Shown here: positions 6,022-33,350 of the stretch, in pieces
Layout: each line of letters begins with the position of its first letter
Position numbering within the stretch: the stretch's first letter is position 1
Source of the DNA: a virus
Strand: one strand, 5' to 3'
IMG/VR virus record: IMGVR_UViG_3300045988_175829
Location: 1 to 33,350 of that record
DNA: 33,350 bases
Notes under the pieces: generated by a model
What the model was told of the DNA's origin: nothing
Databases searched by the model: none
The model's input: the letters and a program-made list of their open reading frames with translations, nothing else
Made by a program: the position numbers and the translations under genes

Positions 6022-6396
6022 ATGAGAATCTTCATCAGCGGTCCGGTCTCCGGCATGCCCGCCAACAACGTGGCCGCGTTCGCCACGGCGGCGTACTGGT
6101 TGCGCCAAGCGGGCCATGAGGTTTACTCGCCCGTTGAGTCCGTCCCGGCGAAATGCACCCATGAGCAGGCCATGCTCATGTGCCTCCGGGAGCTTTCGCG
6201 TGGTGCCAGGGGGATTTATGACTGCCTGGACGAGTTTTCCTTCGAGCCATGGTACGACGCGATGGTACAGCTCGACGGCTGGGAGGATAGCGCTGGCGCT
6301 CAGCTTGAAGCCGAGGTCGCGGACGCGCTCGGAATAAAGCGGATGACCTTGTACGAGGTTCTTGAGAAATCCTCTCTACCAAGGGAGGGCGAATGA
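6022..6396 (+). CDS. DUF4406 / nucleoside 2-deoxyribosyltransferase-like protein.
   Basis: The N-terminal MRIFISGPVSGMP motif is typical of the DUF4406 and nucleoside deoxyribosyltransferase-like fold. 124 aa. Confidence 0.55.
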   Translation: MRIFISGPVSGMPANNVAAFATAAYWLRQAGHEVYSPVESVPAKCTHEQAMLMCLRELSRGARGIYDCLDEFSFEPWYDAMVQLDGWEDSAGAQLEAEVADALGIKRMTLYEVLEKSSLPREGE

Positions 6397-6620
6397 AGGC
6401 GCAATACTGGGACGAATCCACCCGCTCGTACCTGCCCGTAAAGGTGCCAGACGGCTGCACCACCTACGAGGTGGACGAAGAATCGATGGTCACATGCCCG
6501 GGCTGCGGCAGGAGGGTCATGTACGGCAATTGCTTCACGAGCAAGAGGTTCTACACGTCGGACGGCCTCTGGGCGTTCTCGGTGTGTCCTGTGTGCCACG
6601 GGAAGGAGTGGGGCAGATGA
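6393..6620 (+). CDS. Small zinc-ribbon protein (CPGCG...CPVCHG).
   Basis: 75-aa ORF coupled to the upstream gene (ATGA overlap). Two CxxC pairs. Confidence 0.5.
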   Translation: MKAQYWDESTRSYLPVKVPDGCTTYEVDEESMVTCPGCGRRVMYGNCFTSKRFYTSDGLWAFSVCPVCHGKEWGR

Positions 6621-6940
6621 GCATCGAATTACCGAAAGACGCAGAGGGGCGGGAAATCCCGTTAGATACCGAGGTTCTTTACACGTGTGACGGCAGCAAG
6701 TATAAGGTGGCTAAATGGGAGTTCTATCCAAATAAAGACACTAGTTGGCTAGTTTGTCTGGATGCAAATACCGAAGTATTCCGCGTCCCCGGATACATGT
6801 ACCTCACCCCGCCAGACAGCTGGGAGAAGCTGGAAGAGGACTTGGACAGGTGCATCGAAGCGGACTGCGTTTCTCTCGGCGTCTCACTGGTACTTGAGGA
6901 CATCAAGCAGCGAATTCGTAAGCTGAGGGGTGAGGACTGA
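6617..6940 (+). CDS. Hypothetical protein, 107 aa, in a locally lower-GC segment.
   Basis: ATG at 6617 overlaps the upstream stop. Local GC is visibly lower at 6700-6800. Confidence 0.5.
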   Translation: MSIELPKDAEGREIPLDTEVLYTCDGSKYKVAKWEFYPNKDTSWLVCLDANTEVFRVPGYMYLTPPDSWEKLEEDLDRCIEADCVSLGVSLVLEDIKQRIRKLRGED

Positions 6941-7263
6941 TGGAGCGTATTGACCTGTTCGCCGAATCACTGCCGCGCAACTGCCTGTACTGCGCCTATG
7001 GATACGTGGTTATCGATGAGCCGGATTTTTGTCTTATCGGTGACCATCTGGCGTGCATGGCACACGCCGCAGAAGGGGTTAAGAGCAAGAAGTTCGCGGA
7101 TGTGCCAAAGCCAAACAGAGATTTCCAGCGCGCGTTCTGCCCAATCATGAACTGGGACGAGACATGCGATCTGTTCAAGCCGCTCAAGTACGGCGGGCGA
7201 AAGTTCAGGATTCTCGATGATTACGGACTTTTCAGAAAATATTGGAGGGGTGAAGGCGAATGA
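6940..7263 (+). CDS. Hypothetical Cys-rich protein, 107 aa.
   Basis: ORF from the track, translationally coupled to its neighbours. Confidence 0.5.
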   Translation: MERIDLFAESLPRNCLYCAYGYVVIDEPDFCLIGDHLACMAHAAEGVKSKKFADVPKPNRDFQRAFCPIMNWDETCDLFKPLKYGGRKFRILDDYGLFRKYWRGEGE

Positions 7264-7625
7264 CGGCGACTAGCGACGAGCGCCGCGATATGGCGCGGAA
7301 GCTGCGCGAGCTGCCAATCGACATGTACGAGGTCGAGGAGAAGTGGGAATCGGAAGGTCTGAACACGGACTGCCACGACCAGACCGACTACTACCTGATC
7401 TACTTCGTCCTTTTCGGATGCCTCCCAGCAGACCATATGCACCTTTGCGATTATGAGGAATTGCATACACGCCTCGCCGACCTCATAGAGCCGGAACCTG
7501 AGAGGACGTGCCACCTCATCGAGGACGAAGATGGCCGCACGGCTTGCTCCGAGTGCGGATGCACTGCGCTGTATATGTCCAGCGCGACGTATTGCCCGGA
7601 CTGTGGCGCAAGGGTGGTGGGGTGA
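7260..7625 (+). CDS. Hypothetical protein with a C-terminal zinc ribbon (CSECGC...CPDCG).
   Basis: 121-aa ORF from the track with ATGA coupling. Confidence 0.5.
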   Translation: MTATSDERRDMARKLRELPIDMYEVEEKWESEGLNTDCHDQTDYYLIYFVLFGCLPADHMHLCDYEELHTRLADLIEPEPERTCHLIEDEDGRTACSECGCTALYMSSATYCPDCGARVVG

Positions 7626-11281: not shown

Positions 11282-12696
11282 TGGAGCCGAACCAGACGCC
11301 AACATACGAGGCGAACATCCCGGAGGACTTGACCGGTGACGGCGCGATGGCCGCTGAGCTTGCCGCCCTTTACTTCGGCGAGCCTATGCCCTGGCAACCG
11401 CACCTGCTGGATGTGATGCTCGCCCGCGACAGCCACGACAAGTTCGCGGCGCCCGAGGTGGGAATCTCCATCCCCCGCCAGAACGGCAAGAGCTTCATCG
11501 TGCGCGCCCGCTGCCTCTACGGCGCGCTGAACGGCGAGAAAATCCTATACACGTGCCACCACGGGGACACCTCGGACGAGATGTTCCAGGAGCTCTCCGC
11601 CATCTTCGAGGACGAGGAGAACGACGAACTGCACGACCTGCTGAAGCACGTCCGCAAGACCAACGGCAAGCAGGCGATCGTGCTGAAGAACGGCGGCTTG
11701 ATCCGCTTCACCACCCGCACCGACTCCGGCGGGCGCGGAAAGTCGTTCGACGTGCTCATCCTCGACGAGGCGCAGGAGCTCACCGACTCGCAGCAGGCCG
11801 CCCTGCTGCCGTCAATCAGCGCGGGGCCGAAGCACAACCCGCAGACCATCTACCTTGGCACCCCGCCTGACACGAAATGCACCGGCACCGTGTTCAGGAG
11901 CCTCCGCACCGACATCCGCAAGGGCGATTCGCTCATGGCGTGGGTCGAGTGGGGCGCTACCGAAGTGGGTGACAAGCACGACCGCGCACGATGGTACGAG
12001 TTCAACCCGAGCCTGGGAACCGTGCTGAGCGTGAAGGCCGTCGAATCGGAGTGCAACCAGATGCAGCCCGAGGTCTTCGCAAGGGAACGTCTGGGCTACT
12101 GGGCACCCACCGCAGGCGCGAAGCTGGCGTTGAACCCGGACGATTGGGCGAAGGCGTTGCGCGAGGAACCCATGGAGGACGGCAAGCTCAGCTTCGGCGT
12201 GAAGTTCGACCCCGATGGGGAGAAGGCCGCCATCTCGTGGGCATTGACGGAGCGCAACGGCGGTTCATACGTGGAGCTGTACGACATCACCGACGCCAGC
12301 ACCGGGCCGATAGCGGACATGCTGATCCGCAACGCCGACGAGATCGCCGCAGTGTTCATCGACGGCAAGGGCAAGACCGAGACGCTTGTGCAGAAGCTGA
12401 AGGACGGCCATTTCCCCGCCAAGGCGATCATGGCGGGCACCCCGGCCACCATGCAGGCCGCATCCGCGATGTTCAAGGACGAACTGGAAGCAGGGACGCT
12501 GACACACATCGAGTCACCGGCACTTGACGCGAGCGCCACCGGAAGCGTGAAGCGCGACATTGGCGGCAACGGCGGATGGGGCTTCGGCGATGGGGACGGG
12601 TGCATGTCCATCCCAGTTGAATCTGCGGCCGGAGCGCTGTATGCGGGCCGCACCACGAAACGAGAGCCAAGACGGCAACAGGAGGCGAACTTCTAA
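11281..12696 (+). CDS. terL: Terminase large subunit.
   Basis: Walker A is PRQNGKS and Walker B is VLILDEAQEL. 471 aa. The start may be the GTG at 11281, which overlaps the terS stop, or the ATG at 11347. Confidence 0.85.
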   Translation: MEPNQTPTYEANIPEDLTGDGAMAAELAALYFGEPMPWQPHLLDVMLARDSHDKFAAPEVGISIPRQNGKSFIVRARCLYGALNGEKILYTCHHGDTSDEMFQELSAIFEDEENDELHDLLKHVRKTNGKQAIVLKNGGLIRFTTRTDSGGRGKSFDVLILDEAQELTDSQQAALLPSISAGPKHNPQTIYLGTPPDTKCTGTVFRSLRTDIRKGDSLMAWVEWGATEVGDKHDRARWYEFNPSLGTVLSVKAVESECNQMQPEVFARERLGYWAPTAGAKLALNPDDWAKALREEPMEDGKLSFGVKFDPDGEKAAISWALTERNGGSYVELYDITDASTGPIADMLIRNADEIAAVFIDGKGKTETLVQKLKDGHFPAKAIMAGTPATMQAASAMFKDELEAGTLTHIESPALDASATGSVKRDIGGNGGWGFGDGDGCMSIPVESAAGALYAGRTTKREPRRQQEANF

Positions 12697-14123
12697 TGGA
12701 GAAGATAGAGATGGAAATCGTCGAGGGCATCTCCCGCGCGGACGGCCTCGCCGACGAGGACCGCGACACGGCGGTTAAGCTCATGCAGGTCTGGCGGCAG
12801 AAGAACGAGCGTAATCTGCTTAGGGAGAAGTACTACCTCGGCCACGTCCTGGTGCGTGACCTGGGAATCGCCATGCCCAAAAGCCTCGCGCAGAAGATCG
12901 ACCCGCGCATCGACTGGCCGCGCAAGGCCGTCCACGCGCTGGCCGACCGCAGCGTGCTCAACGGCTTCACGAGCGACGACGAGGCGGTCACAGAGGAGCT
13001 TCGTGACATCTACGCGGCCAACAGCCTCGATTTGCTCTACCGCAAGAACCTCATATGCGAGCTGAAGCACTGCTGCGGCTTCTGGACCGTCACCGACGAC
13101 GGCGGCGGCTACCCGGTCATCTCGGCGTATCCCGCCACTGCCGCGGCGGCGCTGTGGGACGACGCCCGCAAGGAGATCGAGGCCGGGCTGGTGGTCGCCG
13201 AGTCGAAGAAGATGCCGGGAGACACCGAGAGGGTGCCGACCGTGGTGCACCTGCTCACCGCAGACAGCCTAGTGGTTCTCACTCGGGTCGGTGGCTCATG
13301 GCGTGCGGAGTACCGCGAGCACTCCATGGGCAGATGCCTCATGGAGCCCATGGCCCACGGCGCCACCTTGGAGCGCCCCTTCGGGACCTCGCGCATCACC
13401 CGCGCCGTGATGAGCATCACGGACGACGCGATCAGGCAGCGTGCGCGCATGGAGGTGGCGGCGGAATCCGCCACGCTCCCGCAGATGTGGCTGCTCGGTA
13501 CCGACAAGCGCGTCACCAACGACGGCAACAGGTACTCCGCTTCCATGGGCGCCATCAACGAGGTGACGAAGGACCGCGACGGCGATGTGCCGACCGTCTG
13601 GCAGTCCTCGCAGCTCCAGATGGCACCGCTCACGGAGTACTTCAAGGCGCTCGCGTGCCAGATGAGCAGCGTGACAGACGTGCCGGTCTCGTTCTTCGGC
13701 GTGTCGAACGACAACCCCAGCTCTTCGGATGCCATCGCGGCATCTTTGGAGCCTTTGGTCATTGATGCCAAGAACCTGAACGCCGAGAACGGCCACGCCC
13801 TGCGTAACGTCGCCTATATGGCCCTGGCGGTGCTCCACGGCACCGACTTCGCCACGGAGCGAGACGCTGGCCACAACGTGAACGCCCGCTTCATGTCCCC
13901 GGCCTACCCCTCCGTCGTGAGCCAGAGCGACGCGATGCTCAAGCAGGCGCAGGCGTTCCCCAAGGTCGCGGCCTCGGACGTGGCGCTCGAGATGCTGGGC
14001 TACACCGACGAGCAGATGCAGCGCATCAACAGCGATTACAAGCGGGCGCAGGCCAACCAGGCGGTGCTCTCCCTGCTGACCCCGAAGGAGGACGGCGATG
14101 GAGATACCGCGCAGCCTGCTTAG
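12696..14123 (+). CDS. Portal protein (SPP1 gp6-like).
   Basis: 475 aa, immediately after terL (ATGA overlap). Motifs are portal-like and the gene sits in the canonical position. Confidence 0.8.
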   Translation: MEKIEMEIVEGISRADGLADEDRDTAVKLMQVWRQKNERNLLREKYYLGHVLVRDLGIAMPKSLAQKIDPRIDWPRKAVHALADRSVLNGFTSDDEAVTEELRDIYAANSLDLLYRKNLICELKHCCGFWTVTDDGGGYPVISAYPATAAAALWDDARKEIEAGLVVAESKKMPGDTERVPTVVHLLTADSLVVLTRVGGSWRAEYREHSMGRCLMEPMAHGATLERPFGTSRITRAVMSITDDAIRQRARMEVAAESATLPQMWLLGTDKRVTNDGNRYSASMGAINEVTKDRDGDVPTVWQSSQLQMAPLTEYFKALACQMSSVTDVPVSFFGVSNDNPSSSDAIAASLEPLVIDAKNLNAENGHALRNVAYMALAVLHGTDFATERDAGHNVNARFMSPAYPSVVSQSDAMLKQAQAFPKVAASDVALEMLGYTDEQMQRINSDYKRAQANQAVLSLLTPKEDGDGDTAQPA

Positions 14124-15357
14124 CGAGCTGACGGATGCCGTCAACGCCCTGTCGGCATCGGCGCAGGCGCTGGCGGCTACCGCGCTCGACGAGATATTCA
14201 AGGAGTGGGACGGCTCAGACGTGACGGGGCTGCGCGTCGAGTGCATAGAGGCCTTGGAGGCCATCGAGAGCGTCTATTGCGACACCTACGCAGCGGGCAG
14301 GGCGGCGGAGTTCTACGAGGGCTGCAGGGCGGCGCAGGGCGTGCGCGGTGCCTACAGCGCCATCGCCGATTCCAGGCGCGACCCGCAGGCGCTTGCCGGT
14401 GCCGTGAGGGCCATGGTCCAGTACGTGGTCGACGGGGACACGGACAGGTACCGGCGCGAGTGCCTTTCGAGGATTGACGCGGACGTGCGGCGCTCCGCCA
14501 ACAGCTGCGTCGCCTACAACACCCGGCGCGACCCGAAGAAGCCGCGATATGCCCGTGTGCCCACCGGCGGCGAGACGTGCGGCTTCTGCCTCATGCTTTC
14601 CAGCTTCGGCTTCCACTACACCACGGAGGAGGCCGCGGGCCACGCGCACGATGGCTGCGACTGCCGCGTGGTGCCCAACTTCGGCAAGGCATCCGTGAAG
14701 GGCTACGACTCCGACGGCATGTATTCGCGCTACCAGGACGTTCTGGAAACCTTGGGCGGGCGCGACGGCATCCGCGCGGAGTGGGACGCGCTGCCCAAGG
14801 AGGAGCGCGAGGCGTACATCGCCAGCCACGGCAAGAAGGAGGGCGCGGCCTTCCAGAAGTACATGAACAAGCGCATGGTCGAGGAGATCGAGCTACGAGA
14901 CCCGAAGTGGTACGCAACGGGAGAACATTCCGGAATCGAGTTTGCCGGTTCTACCGTGAAAGATGAGAAGCTAAAGCGTTGGAGGCAATACCCCGGTGAG
15001 AGAATCACCGCCGAGAAAATAAACGCACTTGGTTACAAGACGGAGTTCTGGGAGGACGAGTCGCATTTGGCGGCTCCGAACGCGGATGGGAAAACGACGA
15101 TCAGCCGAGCTGACCTGTCCACAGGCATCGAGCTAAAGACGATCTACGGGGCAGGGTCTGAGAACACGTTCAAGTCCCACATCAAGTCGATATCAGGGAA
15201 GAACGGCGTGAAGCTCACTGTCGTCGACGTGAGCGAAAATGAAAAGGTTACAGACGAGCAGGCGATCAAGTGGATCAACAAGTACATGGCCCGCTATCAC
15301 ATCAGCGAAGTAAGGATGCTCGGGCACGATGGGAAACTATTGCGCATAAAGAAATAG
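14098..15357 (+). CDS. Head morphogenesis protein (MuF / SPP1 gp7-like) carrying an additional low-GC C-terminal domain of about 150 aa.
   Basis: RBS GAAGGAGG. The MuF-like core includes GETCGFC...DGCDCRVVP. The C-terminal portion, roughly 14900-15357, has a visibly lower GC and is unrelated to MuF. Confidence 0.7.
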   Translation: MEIPRSLLSELTDAVNALSASAQALAATALDEIFKEWDGSDVTGLRVECIEALEAIESVYCDTYAAGRAAEFYEGCRAAQGVRGAYSAIADSRRDPQALAGAVRAMVQYVVDGDTDRYRRECLSRIDADVRRSANSCVAYNTRRDPKKPRYARVPTGGETCGFCLMLSSFGFHYTTEEAAGHAHDGCDCRVVPNFGKASVKGYDSDGMYSRYQDVLETLGGRDGIRAEWDALPKEEREAYIASHGKKEGAAFQKYMNKRMVEEIELRDPKWYATGEHSGIEFAGSTVKDEKLKRWRQYPGERITAEKINALGYKTEFWEDESHLAAPNADGKTTISRADLSTGIELKTIYGAGSENTFKSHIKSISGKNGVKLTVVDVSENEKVTDEQAIKWINKYMARYHISEVRMLGHDGKLLRIKK

Positions 15358-15433
15358 CCAGCGGCTGCATGTCTCTATAGGTGAGTCAAACAACCTGCTG
15401 GCTAACCCGATTATAACCGCAAAAAGCAGCAAG

Positions 15434-15456
15434 GGCCACCTACGGGTGGCCTTTTT
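15434..15456 (+). terminator. Rho-independent terminator after the MuF gene.
   Basis: GGCCACC-TACG-GGTGGCC followed by TTTTT. Confidence 0.75.
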
Positions 15457-15497
15457 CATGCAGAATCTCACGCTCATAGGACACTACCATGCGACAG

Positions 15498-15566
15498 GGC
15501 CGCACGGCCCGAAACGCACATCTAAGGGGCTTGGCCGCACGGCCTGCCCGACGGGCCGCACGGTCC
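15498..15566. repeat. Three direct copies of GGCCGCACGG(C/T)C upstream of the scaffold gene.
   Basis: Copies at 15498-15511, 15534-15545 and 15553-15566, read directly. They lie between a terminator and the scaffold start. Confidence 0.6.
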
Positions 15567-15581
15567 GGGAAAGGACGCGAC

Positions 15582-16061
15582 ATGGCAGACCAGAGCGCAA
15601 CGGAACCCGCACAAGGCACGGAGCCGGCCCAGGAGCCGGCCAGCGGCACGGAACCCGACTACAAGGCGCTTTACGAGGCGGCGAAGGCGAATTCGCGCAA
15701 GTGGGAGAAGCAGGCCAAGGCCAACAAGGGCGCAGCATCGGCTCTGGACGAGGCAAACGAGGCGAAGAAGAGCGCCGACGAGAAGATCGCGGAGCTAGAG
15801 AAGCGACTCGACGCCAAGGAGAAGGCCGAGCGGCGCGCGAAGGTCGCAGCCAAGGTCGCGCAAGAGAAGGGCGTTCCCGCCGACCTGATCGTCGGCGACG
15901 ACGAGGAGAGCATGGCCGAATGGGCCGACAAGATGCTCGCCGCGTTCAAGAAGAAGCCCGCGCCGTCCGTGCAGAAGCCCGGCAGCTTCGCCAAGGACGA
16001 CGGCAAGGACCGAACGGAGCTGCGCGACTTCGCGTCGGCGCTCCTGGGCAACAAGCAATAG
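15582..16061 (+). CDS. Capsid scaffolding protein.
   Basis: ATG at 15582 with RBS GGGAAAGGA. 159-aa acidic and Lys-rich coiled-coil protein, immediately upstream of the major capsid gene. Confidence 0.65.
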   Translation: MADQSATEPAQGTEPAQEPASGTEPDYKALYEAAKANSRKWEKQAKANKGAASALDEANEAKKSADEKIAELEKRLDAKEKAERRAKVAAKVAQEKGVPADLIVGDDEESMAEWADKMLAAFKKKPAPSVQKPGSFAKDDGKDRTELRDFASALLGNKQ

Positions 16062-16074
16062 AGAAGGAGCCATC

Positions 16075-16953
16075 ATGGCAAACGACACAACCAAGGTCGC
16101 GCTCCCGAAGAGCGTGGTCACAACCGTATTGAGCAAGGTGAAGGACGCTTCCACCATCGCGGCGCTCTCGCCGAGCACCCCGCAGAAGTTCGCGGACTCC
16201 ACCTACCTCGTCTTCAACCCGACCGCTGAGGCAGAGGTCATCGCCGAGGGCGCGAAGAAATCCGGTTCCGAGATCTCCACCGACCCCGTCGTGGCGAAGC
16301 GCGTCAAGGTCGTGACGACCACCCGCGTCTCCGACGAGCTGAAGTGGGCGGACGAGGACAACCAGCTCGAAATCGTGAGCAACATCATCGCCGACCAGAC
16401 CGCGGCCATCGGCCGAGCGCTCGACTACGTCGTGTACCACGCGATCAACCCCAAGACCGGCCTGGCGCTCGACGGATACACGGCGCTCACCGCCGGCGCG
16501 AACTCTATCACCGCGACCGACGACCCCTCGACCGATATCGACAGCATGACCGACGCCGTGCTCGACTACGACATCAACGGCTTCGCCCTGTCCCGCAAGC
16601 TCGCGGCAGACTTGCGAAAGCTGCGCGTCCCCGCCACCGGCCTGCGCCTCTATCCCGAGATTCCGCTGTCCCTCGAGGTCGGCAGCATCGATGGCATCCC
16701 CGCAGCCGCGTCCGGCACCGTCAACGGGCGCCTCGCGAAGACCGACACCAAGGTGCTCGGCATCCTCGGCGATTTCAATGCGATCAAGTGGGGCATGGTC
16801 CGCGACATGACGAGCGAGATCATCGAGTTCGGCGACCCCGACAACACCGGCAACGACCTCAAGGGATACAACCAGGTCGCATACCGCACCGAGGCCGTCC
16901 TCGCCTATGCCGTCCTCGACCCCAAGGCCTTCTCCGTCCTCAAGAGCGCCTAG
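16075..16953 (+). CDS. Major capsid protein (HK97-like fold).
   Basis: RBS GAGAAGGAG. 292 aa, downstream of the scaffold gene. Composition is typical of an MCP. Confidence 0.8.
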   Translation: MANDTTKVALPKSVVTTVLSKVKDASTIAALSPSTPQKFADSTYLVFNPTAEAEVIAEGAKKSGSEISTDPVVAKRVKVVTTTRVSDELKWADEDNQLEIVSNIIADQTAAIGRALDYVVYHAINPKTGLALDGYTALTAGANSITATDDPSTDIDSMTDAVLDYDINGFALSRKLAADLRKLRVPATGLRLYPEIPLSLEVGSIDGIPAAASGTVNGRLAKTDTKVLGILGDFNAIKWGMVRDMTSEIIEFGDPDNTGNDLKGYNQVAYRTEAVLAYAVLDPKAFSVLKSA

Positions 16954-31332: not shown

Positions 31333-32979
31333 TTACTCGCTGTCGGCCCTCTTGGCCATAGGCAAGATCTGAGCGCCGACGCGCTTCGCCACGGTGTTGT
31401 ACGCCCTCATGAAATCCCCGACGAAGGCATCCGCTTCCGAACGGTTGTCGTTCACCCAGTGCTCGACAACTCTGGCCCGCTCGAAGGTGCGCTCATAGCG
31501 TCTAAACCAGTGCTTGTACATATTGCGCTTGGTCTCACCCGGATACATGTCTTCGGGGGCGCTCTCGACCAGATTCTCCCAAGACACCCCAACCGCACCG
31601 AGGTCCTCCCACAGGGGACTTCCATCGGTTGGCCTCTTGGACAAGTAATCCCATAAGAGGCTCTCTGGTCGCTTCTCGCCAGGGAGAAACACTATGTTTC
31701 CTCCGCTTTCTCTTACCGCCGGGGGAATTTTGCCATCTATTTCTTCGACCGTGACGTCACCGTCGAAGACAACGACCTTCTCCCTGAAATACGAAAAGTC
31801 ACCCGCATAGAGACTCGCAATCTGCTTGCACCCAAGGGAAACGTCGAGAAAGTCCGAGTTGTCAACCACCTCAGGACGCAACACGTCGAGCAGCTCCCTT
31901 AGGAGCCAGCGGGCTTCGGCATCCTCGGTGAACACTCCGATACGCCTAGTACTGAGAGCGGGATTGGAGACATAGAGTCCGTTCTCGAGATTTGACCACG
32001 ACGAGTTTCTCATCGACCTAAGCTTGCCGTTGACGCACGACAGGTACGCGACCTCGACGCCTCCGGGCGAGGAGGTGGGATTGTACTGGTTCTTTTCGCT
32101 CAACTCCCTGAGGATCACCGTGCTGTGGGTGGTGAACACGACCTGGAACCCGCACGCTTTCGATTCATCCAGGAGGAGTTTGAGGAGCCTCTGCTGCGCC
32201 GCCGGATGGAGCGACGCGTCGACCTCGTCGATGAGGAGAAGGCCGCCGTCCCAGTCGCCGCCCATCTCGTCCCTCAGCTTCTTGAAGGAGAGGACCGCGA
32301 GGAGAATCTGACCCAAGTTGTCCTGACCGGACGAGTTCGCCATCGGCCCATAGGTGTCAGTCTCGACCCCGGTGCCGCTCTTCAATGAAATCCCCGTGAT
32401 TGACAGGCTGCTCAGGGACCTGATCGGTTCATGGATGCTCAGGATTCTCGAATAGTTCTCGTTGAACCACTCCTCGTCCGCAGCGTCTCCCCACCGACGG
32501 TTCTTCGCCGTGACCGTGATGGAGCCGTTGCCCGGCTCGCGGTCCGGGTCGACCAGCACGTGGCTGCCCTCGGGTATGACGCGGTCCATGCAGTCGCCCT
32601 CGACCTCGAGCGCGAAGGCGCGCGGATGCGAGGCGAGCACCGAGGCCGGCACCTCGACGCGGTGGGAGACCTCCTCCTCGTCGGTCAGCGCGCCGGCGTG
32701 CACGCGCCCGATCGCGAGCAGCGGCACGGTCGCGGAGGACGCGGTCACGGGCATGGCTCCGGAGGGGACGGAAGAGCCCTCGGGTTCATCGTCGATAATC
32801 TCGCCCTTGTTTATTCCAAAGTAGTCGGCAATTGCCTGAACGGCACCCATTCGAGGAACCGCTCGATCATTCTCCCGTTGAGAAACAGCCATCGAAGAAA
32901 CGTCGGCAATCTTGCCAAACTCGTCTTGGGTAAGACCGTGGGCATTTCTGATTCGCCTGATATTCGAACCTATACTCAT
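31333..32979 (-). CDS. CI/LexA-like repressor (XRE HTH plus S24 autopeptidase domain) fused in frame to an OLD-family ATPase C-terminal half and a Toprim nuclease domain.
   Basis: The ATG at 32979 is preferred over the GTG at 32988 because of RBS GAGAGGTG. N-terminal HTH: IRRIRNAHGLTQDEFGKIADVSSMAVSQRE. Linker: VPLLAIGRVHAG-ALTD, LexA-like with Ala-Gly. S24 core: EVEGDCM ... VLVDPDREPGNGSITVTAKN. ABC signature SSGQDNLGQILLAVL, Walker B LLLIDEVDASLHP and H-loop VVFTTHS follow, with no Walker A anywhere. The Toprim-like E in GVFTEDAEA and DxD in VVVFDGD follow those. Confidence 0.75.
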   Translation of the reverse strand: MSIGSNIRRIRNAHGLTQDEFGKIADVSSMAVSQRENDRAVPRMGAVQAIADYFGINKGEIIDDEPEGSSVPSGAMPVTASSATVPLLAIGRVHAGALTDEEEVSHRVEVPASVLASHPRAFALEVEGDCMDRVIPEGSHVLVDPDREPGNGSITVTAKNRRWGDAADEEWFNENYSRILSIHEPIRSLSSLSITGISLKSGTGVETDTYGPMANSSGQDNLGQILLAVLSFKKLRDEMGGDWDGGLLLIDEVDASLHPAAQQRLLKLLLDESKACGFQVVFTTHSTVILRELSEKNQYNPTSSPGGVEVAYLSCVNGKLRSMRNSSWSNLENGLYVSNPALSTRRIGVFTEDAEARWLLRELLDVLRPEVVDNSDFLDVSLGCKQIASLYAGDFSYFREKVVVFDGDVTVEEIDGKIPPAVRESGGNIVFLPGEKRPESLLWDYLSKRPTDGSPLWEDLGAVGVSWENLVESAPEDMYPGETKRNMYKHWFRRYERTFERARVVEHWVNDNRSEADAFVGDFMRAYNTVAKRVGAQILPMAKRADSE

Positions 32980-33083
32980 GGCTTGCACCTCTCGAACGCT
33001 AAATTCTTTTTACATTATAAGAAAAAGGTTCTTTACATTCACTGTATGTTCACCTATAGTCTTAATCATCGAAAGGAGGTCAG
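32980..33083. promoter_or_regulatory. AT-rich divergent switch region between the repressor-fusion gene and the cro-like gene. It holds the two TTTACATT operator-like repeats and the cro-side -35/-10 hexamers.
   Basis: TTTACATT lies at about 33009-33016 and 33032-33039. TTTACA, 17 bp, TATAGT (33032-33060) precedes the cro RBS GAAAGGAGG. The region is about 30% GC, against about 65% for the genome. Confidence 0.55.
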
Positions 33084-33278
33084 ATGGAACTCATCGAAGC
33101 TCGCAAAAAGGAGCGATACACGCAGCAGCAAGTGGCTGATTATCTAGGTATATCCCGCATTACATATGCAAAGATGGAAAAGAACCCTGGCGACATCACC
33201 CTTGACAATGCGCGTAAGCTCGCCACTCTTTTCAAGGTTGATGTGCGCGATATTTTTTTCCCTACAAGCGATAGTTAA
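33084..33278 (+). CDS. cro: Cro-like XRE-family HTH regulator.
   Basis: 64 aa with YTQQQVADYLGISRITYAKMEKN as the HTH. It is divergent from the repressor gene and has a strong RBS. Confidence 0.75.
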   Translation: MELIEARKKERYTQQQVADYLGISRITYAKMEKNPGDITLDNARKLATLFKVDVRDIFFPTSDS

Positions 33279-33350
33279 TATAGTTCAAAAGGAGACCCAA
33301 AGATGCCCATCAACGTGGACCAGGCGGTGACCGCGTCGGTCATGGCGAAG

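Follow-up and report, generated by a model that had tools for sequence, protein, structure and literature searches.

A swappable cassette encoding a predicted toxin-type nuclease at the C-terminus of a putative MuF-type phage head protein

MuF proteins of the SPP1 gp7-like kind are portal-associated components of the phage head. MuF polymorphic toxins have been defined computationally, mostly in phages of Firmicutes, and members with a cd13442 or CdiA-CT(Bp1026b) domain have already been described (Jamet et al. 2017, PMC5576092). Iyer et al. 2017 (PMC5512222) proposed that MuF fusion proteins are delivered by the virion, being injected together with the DNA. The subject of this report is one gene of the IMG/VR virus record IMGVR_UViG_3300045988_175829, of which the whole stretch of 33,350 nucleotides (nt), hereafter the window, was analysed. 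The gene occupies positions 14098..15357 (+ strand) and encodes 419 amino acids (aa), exactly the open reading frame (ORF) proposed in an initial annotation of this DNA. It lies directly 3' of the portal gene in the packaging and head module, which is the position used as a criterion for MuF toxins (PMC5576092). We consider it probable that the product is a MuF head protein bearing a recombined 571-bp nuclease cassette, and that it is packaged and acts in the next host. The initial annotation had proposed a MuF carrier with a candidate polymorphic-toxin cargo, and this view is supported by the VG15 match, the nuclease fold and the cassette exchange described below, the term 'toxin' still being something that we infer.

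Database matches support the identification of the N-terminal part as a MuF-type minor head protein. Residues 13-214 (14134..14739, +) match the VG15 (MuF-like) domain of Pfam (PF25310, E 2.1e-54), and this match holds the CxxC...CxC region (GETCGFC...DGCDCRVVP, residues ~157-192). When GenBank phages were searched with tblastn, only the first ~215 residues matched, in actinobacterial phages whose proteins are labelled MuF-like minor capsid protein, head maturation protease or hypothetical. An identical protein in nr (P0127) bears the name 'MAG TPA: minor capsid protein 2 [Bacteriophage sp.]', and the Pfam families PF04233 and PF06152 gave no match to the window protein at E <= 1. The putative MuF core and its cysteine motif agree with the initial annotation, although the core ends near residue 275 and not, as had been supposed, near residue 200; the extension of about 145-155 aa that follows agrees with the ~150 aa originally estimated.

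This extension is a swappable cassette recombined onto a conserved MuF junction. The junction motif EIELRDPKWYATG (14884..14922, +; residues 263-275) closes the MuF core on its C-terminal side and serves as the left recombination point. Its consensus, EIExRDPxW[FY]xTG, is kept whichever cargo comes next, unrelated ones included, and residues E6, I7, R10, D11, W14 and G18 (numbered as in A2, an alignment of 36 sequences) are conserved at 90% or more. Short MuF proteins of 273-287 aa stop right after the ...W-F-x-G of this motif, which we take to be comparable to the VENN-type demarcation motifs of other polymorphic toxins. In a blastn comparison with L003, the locus encoding the homolog P0138, identity was 95.8% as far as 14892, no similarity was found from 14893 to 15463, and identity resumed at 82.5% from 15464. 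The exchanged unit is therefore the 571 bp at 14893..15463 (+), comprising the cargo from residue 266, a 50-nt hairpin in the 3' untranslated region (3'UTR) and a terminator. The comparison with L001 gives 81-95% identity within the cassette and 52-79% in the rest of the gene.

Core and cargo have separate histories of relatedness, as seen when residues 1-255 and 256-419 were scored separately against 120 homologs. The core of P0138 (97% N-terminal identity) carries a DUF6883 C-terminus, as do P0143 and P0147 (89-90%), while P0140 (93%) has a 250-aa, peptidase-like extension with an HEAGH (HExxH) motif. The cores of P0128-P0136 are 90-93% identical to that of the window and are joined to nucleases of the same superfamily that are only 30-35% identical to its cargo. 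The nearest relative of the window cargo (91-92%) is found in the L001/L002 lineage, the core of which is 62-67% identical; likewise, P0145 and P0146 of Collinsella combine 54% N-terminal identity with a cargo 67% identical to that of the window, and P0226 combines 33% with 56%. More distant cores carry a colicin-D-like cargo or none. Pfam confirms the DUF6883 and Colicin_D cargos, the former being a BECR-Tox3 RNase that frequently occurs in fusion with Phage_Mu_F and in most cases has DUF4926 after it (bioRxiv 10.64898/2026.08.28.747851). The comparison of homologs suggested with the initial annotation has thus revealed a C-terminus that varies on cores of 89-97% identity, among a DUF6883/BECR RNase, an HExxH domain and nuclease subtypes only 30-35% identical.

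Base composition also distinguishes the cassette. Its guanine-plus-cytosine content (GC) is 52.5%, against 67.5% and 65% in its flanks, and GC rises again after ~15464. For the segment 14900-15357, GC is 52.4%, compared with 67.4% in 14098-14892, 65% in the next kilobase and 64.6% in the whole window; the dip initially reported against flanks of ~65% is therefore real, but its depth had been overstated at ~48%. Only 1.3% of 458-bp windows have a GC of 53% or less. At third codon positions (GC3) the extension has a value of 0.69, the core 0.91 and the portal and capsid genes ~0.90. Since the dip is also present in GC3, it is a compositional signature and not merely an effect of amino acid usage. 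Cargo GC3 was lower than core GC3 in every sibling checked, most clearly in L041 (0.61 against 0.91) and L003 (0.62 against 0.88). In this MuF clade the C-terminus is most often a nuclease of this superfamily, which at first sight resembles a conserved, integral part of such proteins, the condition named beforehand as arguing against a cargo; yet core and domain are not inherited together, the GC3 of the domain differs from that of the core, and the short MuF proteins end at the junction.

The 3' part of the cassette holds two hairpins. An intrinsic terminator (15434-15456, +; GGCCACC / TACG / GGTGGCC followed by T5) is conserved in L001 and L002 and bears out the strong terminator initially noted after the gene, with a hairpin and U5 in the RNA. 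The 116-nt 3' region as a whole has a predicted folding energy of -44 kcal/mol (z -3.98), and the terminator folds as predicted; a simple consensus scanner for promoters and terminators did not call it. An imperfect 50-nt hairpin, found by RNA folding, begins at the stop codon (15355..15404, +) and also belongs to the cassette; it is ~94-95% identical between the window and L001/L002, which is above most of the coding sequence. A search of the 3'UTR against Rfam gave no match beyond a sub-threshold Phe_leader, reflecting the terminator.

Sequence and structural comparisons support the prediction of a toxin-type nuclease in the C-terminal domain. When residues 255-419 were used in an exhaustive phmmer search, 124 cluster representatives were recovered at E < 1e-3; most are ~380-430 aa long, match at their C-terminus and have a CxxC..CxC motif upstream. 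An earlier, word-indexed search had found 4 proteins, and the reading of the domain as rare was overturned by this result. From the alignment A2, AF2 predicted a compact alpha/beta domain (14923..15354, +; residues 276-419) with a predicted local distance difference test score (pLDDT) of 94.9 and a predicted template modelling score (pTM) of 0.88; a single-sequence prediction of the full protein (pLDDT 45) was not used. The only significant Foldseek match in the PDB was 4g6v_A (E 1.5e-4), the CdiA-CT nuclease of Burkholderia pseudomallei 1026b, which cleaves transfer RNA (tRNA) and is thus a tRNase. Structure prediction, recommended when the C-terminus could not be placed by eye, has thus assigned it to the PD-(D/E)xK family, with the CdiA-CT tRNase of 1026b the best structural match by a wide margin. 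Among the structure matches in BFVD are phage proteins named 'tRNA nuclease CdiA C-terminal domain-containing protein' and 'CDI toxin-like protein', several fusions under the name 'minor capsid protein', one portal fusion and, from a mycobacteriophage, a 'capsid maturation protease and MuF-like fusion protein'.

At the level of sequence, the link between the window domain and Pfam CdiA_C is transitive only, running through homologs and profile iteration. CdiA_C is reached by members of A2 such as P0234 (33.1 bits) and P0166 (26.5, the gathering score being 26.6), and iteration ties the window domain to the CdiA_C-positive proteins even when the junction motif is left out. The 67%-identical homolog from Collinsella aerofaciens is named 'tRNA nuclease CdiA C-terminal domain-containing protein' in UniRef. 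The C-terminal ~200 aa of the window protein matched no Pfam or NCBIfam family, giving only a weak Pfam 'Relaxase' match (E 0.12) and DUF7167, and PADLOC returned nothing meaningful. Matches of the C-terminus to WDR5 among PDB sequences (phmmer, E 0.012-0.3) were dismissed as spurious.

The PD-(D/E)xK fold and active site are well supported by the alignment and the model together. Positions E44 and D82 of A2 are invariant and E88, K90 and K111 are conserved at 90% or more; these correspond in the window protein to the predicted catalytic residues E301 (14998-15000), D339 (15112-15114), E345 (15130-15132), K347 (15136-15138) and K368 (15199-15201), all codons on the + strand. The active site of 4G6V comprises E187, D214, D223 and K242, and the enzyme is Mg2+-dependent with tRNA-Ala as its substrate (PMC9086364). 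By spacing, these residues are E66, D93, D102 and K121 of the deposited chain. A HMMER alignment pairs E66, D93 and K121 with E301, D339 and K368, while D102 pairs with E345 only after a shift of three residues in a hairpin. As remarked in the initial annotation, the protein has an FWEDESH motif (at residues 316-322) and a basic tail (LLRIKK).

A label of 'head maturation protease' attaches to this architecture in several resources. PHROG 13257/193, so labelled, match the window protein at E 1e-30, and BFVD entry A0A5J6TGH5 (Mycobacterium phage MalagasyRose) is labelled 'capsid maturation protease and MuF-like fusion protein', whereas the Pfam scan found no protease family signature in the window protein. 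Because there is no Pfam peptidase family and the C-terminus has a predicted PD-(D/E)xK nuclease fold, the label looks like a misannotation that has been widely propagated.

Strong purifying selection acts on the cargo: when the window is compared with the 91%-identical lineage, the ratio of nonsynonymous to synonymous substitution (dN/dS) is ~0.05 at dS ~0.85. The fusion is intact at all 33 of 33 IMG/VR loci and at ~37 of 39 loci in Collinsella genomes, 38 of these 39 genome loci retain the DL..G.E[IL]K motif, and one exact intact allele occurs on 433 contigs. Within the 91%-identical lineage, eight independent loss-of-function lesions, placed at codons 276-340, were found in loci with intact portal, scaffold and capsid genes. 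In L001 the W codon of the junction motif has become a stop (TGG to TGA) and in L002 a stop replaces S three codons downstream; L081-L086 have six distinct lesions between codons 314 and 340 (deletions of 1 bp and of 5 bp, an insertion of 11 bp and three nonsense mutations). These null alleles are evidence that the cargo is dispensable. They were found through cargo fragments and so constitute a biased sample, for which reason their enrichment was rejected as proof of toxicity or counter-selection; among 16 loci sampled instead by way of the 3'UTR, 14 were intact over the available gene sequence, one had core deletions and one was a chimera bridged to a CRISPR array. Programmed read-through or a two-gene arrangement at the junction stops of L001 and L002 was also discarded, as these are minority alleles (33/33 IMG/VR loci being intact) and the other lesions are scattered frameshifts. 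Substitutions at catalytic positions are found in some relatives, E301K in 1 of 16 IMG/VR loci and E345K in P0002.

Two metagenome proteins join the cargo to other partners. P0255 (619 aa) joins it to DnaA at ...RRMVEEIE and P0003 (123 aa) to a RecF-like Walker-A N-terminus at GKTT. Wider mobility of the domain was considered and set aside, both proteins most likely being assembly chimeras formed at short shared words, an event that L091 displays directly. This metagenome contig (ERZ1034984 NODE_9387) contains at L091:4041-4964 a CRISPR array with a 36-nt repeat, GTTTTGGCGCAGTGTCGATCTGACTGGTAATCAAAC, and spacers of ~30 nt, and the assembler had bridged one spacer into the nuclease cassette (at codons for DGKTTISRADL) and another into a phage scaffold-like gene. 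Since these spacers match the lineage, some gut bacterium holds spacers against it.

No immunity ORF was found in the 224-nt gap between the MuF stop codon and the scaffold gene at 15582, in agreement with the initial annotation; the gap contains only the terminator and spurious ORFs, and there is no room for such a gene because the scaffold gene comes next. The nuclease-type cargo has no small ORF after it in the window, in L001/L002, L004, L040 and L041, or in ~36 loci from Collinsella genomes. Immunity-like families were absent among the 20 other ORFs of the window in Pfam, and among six ORFs (five besides the MuF gene) in PADLOC; an immunity gene was also sought in the low-GC patches at 6300-7400 and 31400-32900, and this candidate was dropped as no recognisable family occurs there. 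Small downstream ORFs are present at all 3 of the 3 non-nuclease cassette loci examined. The DUF6883 cassette is followed by a 56-aa ORF (weak DUF4926, E 0.0037) and a 124-aa DUF2513 ORF, the HExxH cassette by a 60-aa ORF and a DUF2513 ORF, and the colicin-D-like cassette by ORFs of 118 and 127 aa.

Were the protein to act as we propose, the MuF core would bring it into the procapsid via the portal, and the nuclease would ride in the virion and enter the next host cell with the DNA. The portal association of SPP1 gp7-like proteins and the injection proposal (PMC5512222) make carriage in the capsid and action in a new cell probable. There the nuclease would cut host RNA, tRNA being the likeliest target because the nearest structural relative is a tRNase, with host take-over, a shift between lysis and lysogeny, or a disabled defence as the likely outcome. 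An immunity gene may be unneeded because, we propose, a late-operon gene is expressed only once the cell is bound for lysis. Several points weigh against this account. Pfam CdiA_C (PF18451) does not match the window protein itself, even at E <= 1, and a profile search of PDB sequences gets to 4g6v only at E = 2. The suggested tRNase activity derives from one structural neighbour at 15% identity, and members with the same fold include DNases (EC869 CdiA-CT and restriction enzymes). The apparent relationship of VG15 to MuF is based on the annotation of homologs and on gene position. A nuclease that is the majority C-terminus is also compatible with a housekeeping role for the phage. Finally, 89% of MuF toxin genes have a small ORF after them (PMC5576092) and the window gene does not; the absence of an adjacent immunity ORF therefore weakens a strict reading as a polymorphic toxin.

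Other explanations accommodate some of these points. A classical toxin of bacterial competition, after the published model of Jamet et al. (PMC5576092), would be released or delivered to non-lysogenic competitors, while lysogens would be guarded by an immunity protein encoded elsewhere in the prophage. Homology of the domain to a proven toxin of contact-dependent inhibition (CDI), polymorphic C-termini on a conserved N-terminus and the small ORFs downstream of sibling cassettes (DUF4926-like and DUF2513, or two after the colicin-D-like cargo) all accord with such a role; however, no ORF separates the toxin and scaffold genes in the window or in the nuclease-type loci checked, no immunity family was seen among the scanned ORFs of the window and the gene belongs to a late structural operon, and we think this explanation unlikely. 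The nuclease might instead be a working part of the phage life cycle, for example in processing DNA ends during packaging or ejection, and not a host-directed effector or toxin. We judge this quite unlikely: related phages swap the domain for RNases or a peptidase-like domain, or do without it, at least eight independent frameshift or nonsense alleles fall in the domain beside intact neighbouring genes, cargo and core identities are decoupled with differing GC3, and the closest structure is an RNase toxin. In its favour are the great frequency of the VG15 and PD-(D/E)xK combination (124 cluster representatives, mostly ~400 aa with CxxC..CxC), the lack of an immunity gene and the strong purifying selection. 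It is very improbable that the domain is catalytically dead or a decaying remnant with, at most, a structural or an RNA- or DNA-binding role. Substitutions at catalytic positions in some relatives (E301K, E345K) and truncated alleles would suit a remnant, and the inactive PBECR domain of Mu gpF offers a precedent (PMC5512222), but the window protein has all five predicted catalytic residues, each conserved at 90% or more, a dN/dS of 0.05 and a compact fold predicted with high confidence.

An extension of the packaged-nuclease explanation to the whole clade is tentative, and we regard it as doubtful. The PD-(D/E)xK cargos might all be immunity-less, virion-injected tRNases that act on the new host (in take-over, control of lysogeny or anti-defence), while the other cargos might be classical toxin-immunity cassettes. 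If the cargos were such injected tRNases, EIExRDPxW[FY]xTG could double as a site of release by processing and an anchor for recombination, and the recurrent knock-outs would reflect the fitness cost of an unguarded nuclease in lysogens.

The gene order around the fusion is small and large terminase, portal, MuF fusion, scaffold and major capsid protein. The portal gene (12696..14123, +; 475 aa, weak Pfam SPP1_portal, E 7e-4) shares its last 26 nt with the start of the MuF gene, and related loci have the same gene order with a portal annotation. Downstream are a scaffold gene (15582..16061, +; 159 aa, Pfam DUF4355 'capsid assembly scaffolding protein', E 7e-6) and a gene for an HK97-type major capsid protein (16075..16953, +; Pfam Phage_capsid, E 9e-13). 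Between the terminator and the start of the scaffold gene, just upstream of the latter, a 15-nt motif with internal palindromy, GGGCCGCACGGCCCG, occurs in three direct copies (15497-15567, spacings 35 and 21 nt), which may be a regulatory or re-initiation element of the late operon. Elsewhere the window encodes ERF, ParB_N, a CHAP lysin, Dam methylase, integrase domains and a repressor-like ORF with helix-turn-helix (HTH) and S24 domains. The window is a temperate siphovirus of Collinsella, the temperate lifestyle being deduced from the integrase domains, the repressor-like ORF and the occurrence of relatives as Collinsella prophages; 38 of 39 related loci in reference genomes are in Collinsella, several within large chromosomal contigs. 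A megablast search of GenBank phages with 12 kb around the MuF gene gave no match.

Further low-GC patches occur in the window. At 6300-7400, GC is 52-55% around 6430-7090 and there are small ORFs without a family match (6362-6940, 6940-7263 and 7260-7625). At 32620-33350, GC falls to 44% near 32860, and a 238-aa ORF (32431-33147), also without a family match, overlaps the patch. Both patches may hold further acquired accessory genes. A 551-aa ORF on the opposite strand (31336-32988, -), partly inside a stretch of lower GC, combines HTH_3 and Peptidase_S24 (a CI/LexA-like repressor) with the C-terminal portion of an OLD/AriA/GajA-type ABC ATPase; this may be an unusual repressor-defence fusion, or else ORF calling has joined two genes.

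The locus provides a clean natural experiment in abundant prophages of human-gut Collinsella, with near-identical cores, several cargos, boundaries mapped to the base and natural null alleles, and it makes testable whether phage head proteins deliver nucleases into infected cells, and what is cut there. In the literature compared, we did not find a VG15 core with cassette boundaries at base level, a conserved junction motif and a terminator that moves with the cassette, or a division of the cassettes into those for nucleases, which lack candidate immunity ORFs, and the others, which possess them.

The MuF polymorphic toxins (PMC5576092) share with the window a post-portal gene, a conserved N-terminus (in the window putatively of the MuF superfamily), a variable toxin-type C-terminus, a predominance of nuclease cargos, cd13442 among them, and a setting in temperate siphoviruses of the human gut. 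The window differs in having a VG15 core (possibly their 'MuF4'), in its association with Coriobacteriia and not Firmicutes, and in a cassette that ends in its own terminator within the late operon with no small ORF after it, this last being its chief peculiarity. Compared with CdiA-CT of 1026b (PDB 4G6V; PF18451 / cd13442), the window domain is only 14-15% identical, keeps K347 where CdiA-CT lacks the canonical lysine of ExK, and has 6 residues between D and E instead of 9; its carrier is a putative phage head protein and not a type V secretion filament, and it has no CdiI-like partner. The virion-delivered MuF/portal effector fusions and polyvalent proteins of Iyer et al. (PMC5512222) resemble it in their proposed injection with DNA and in that no immunity gene is expected; that survey stressed BECR-type (PBECR) RNases, ADP-ribosyltransferases, RelA/SpoT and further domains, whereas the window protein carries a single PD-(D/E)xK cargo and is not a multi-effector protein. 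Like SPP1 gp7 and Mu gpF, the protein is encoded after the portal and is presumed to be a portal-bound minor head protein; unlike them, it has no Pfam Phage_Mu_F match, and it carries a Cys4-like motif as well as a nuclease cargo, which gp7 lacks. These comparisons support the view that the locus is a well-resolved further example, in Collinsella phages, of the known class of MuF toxins and virion effectors.

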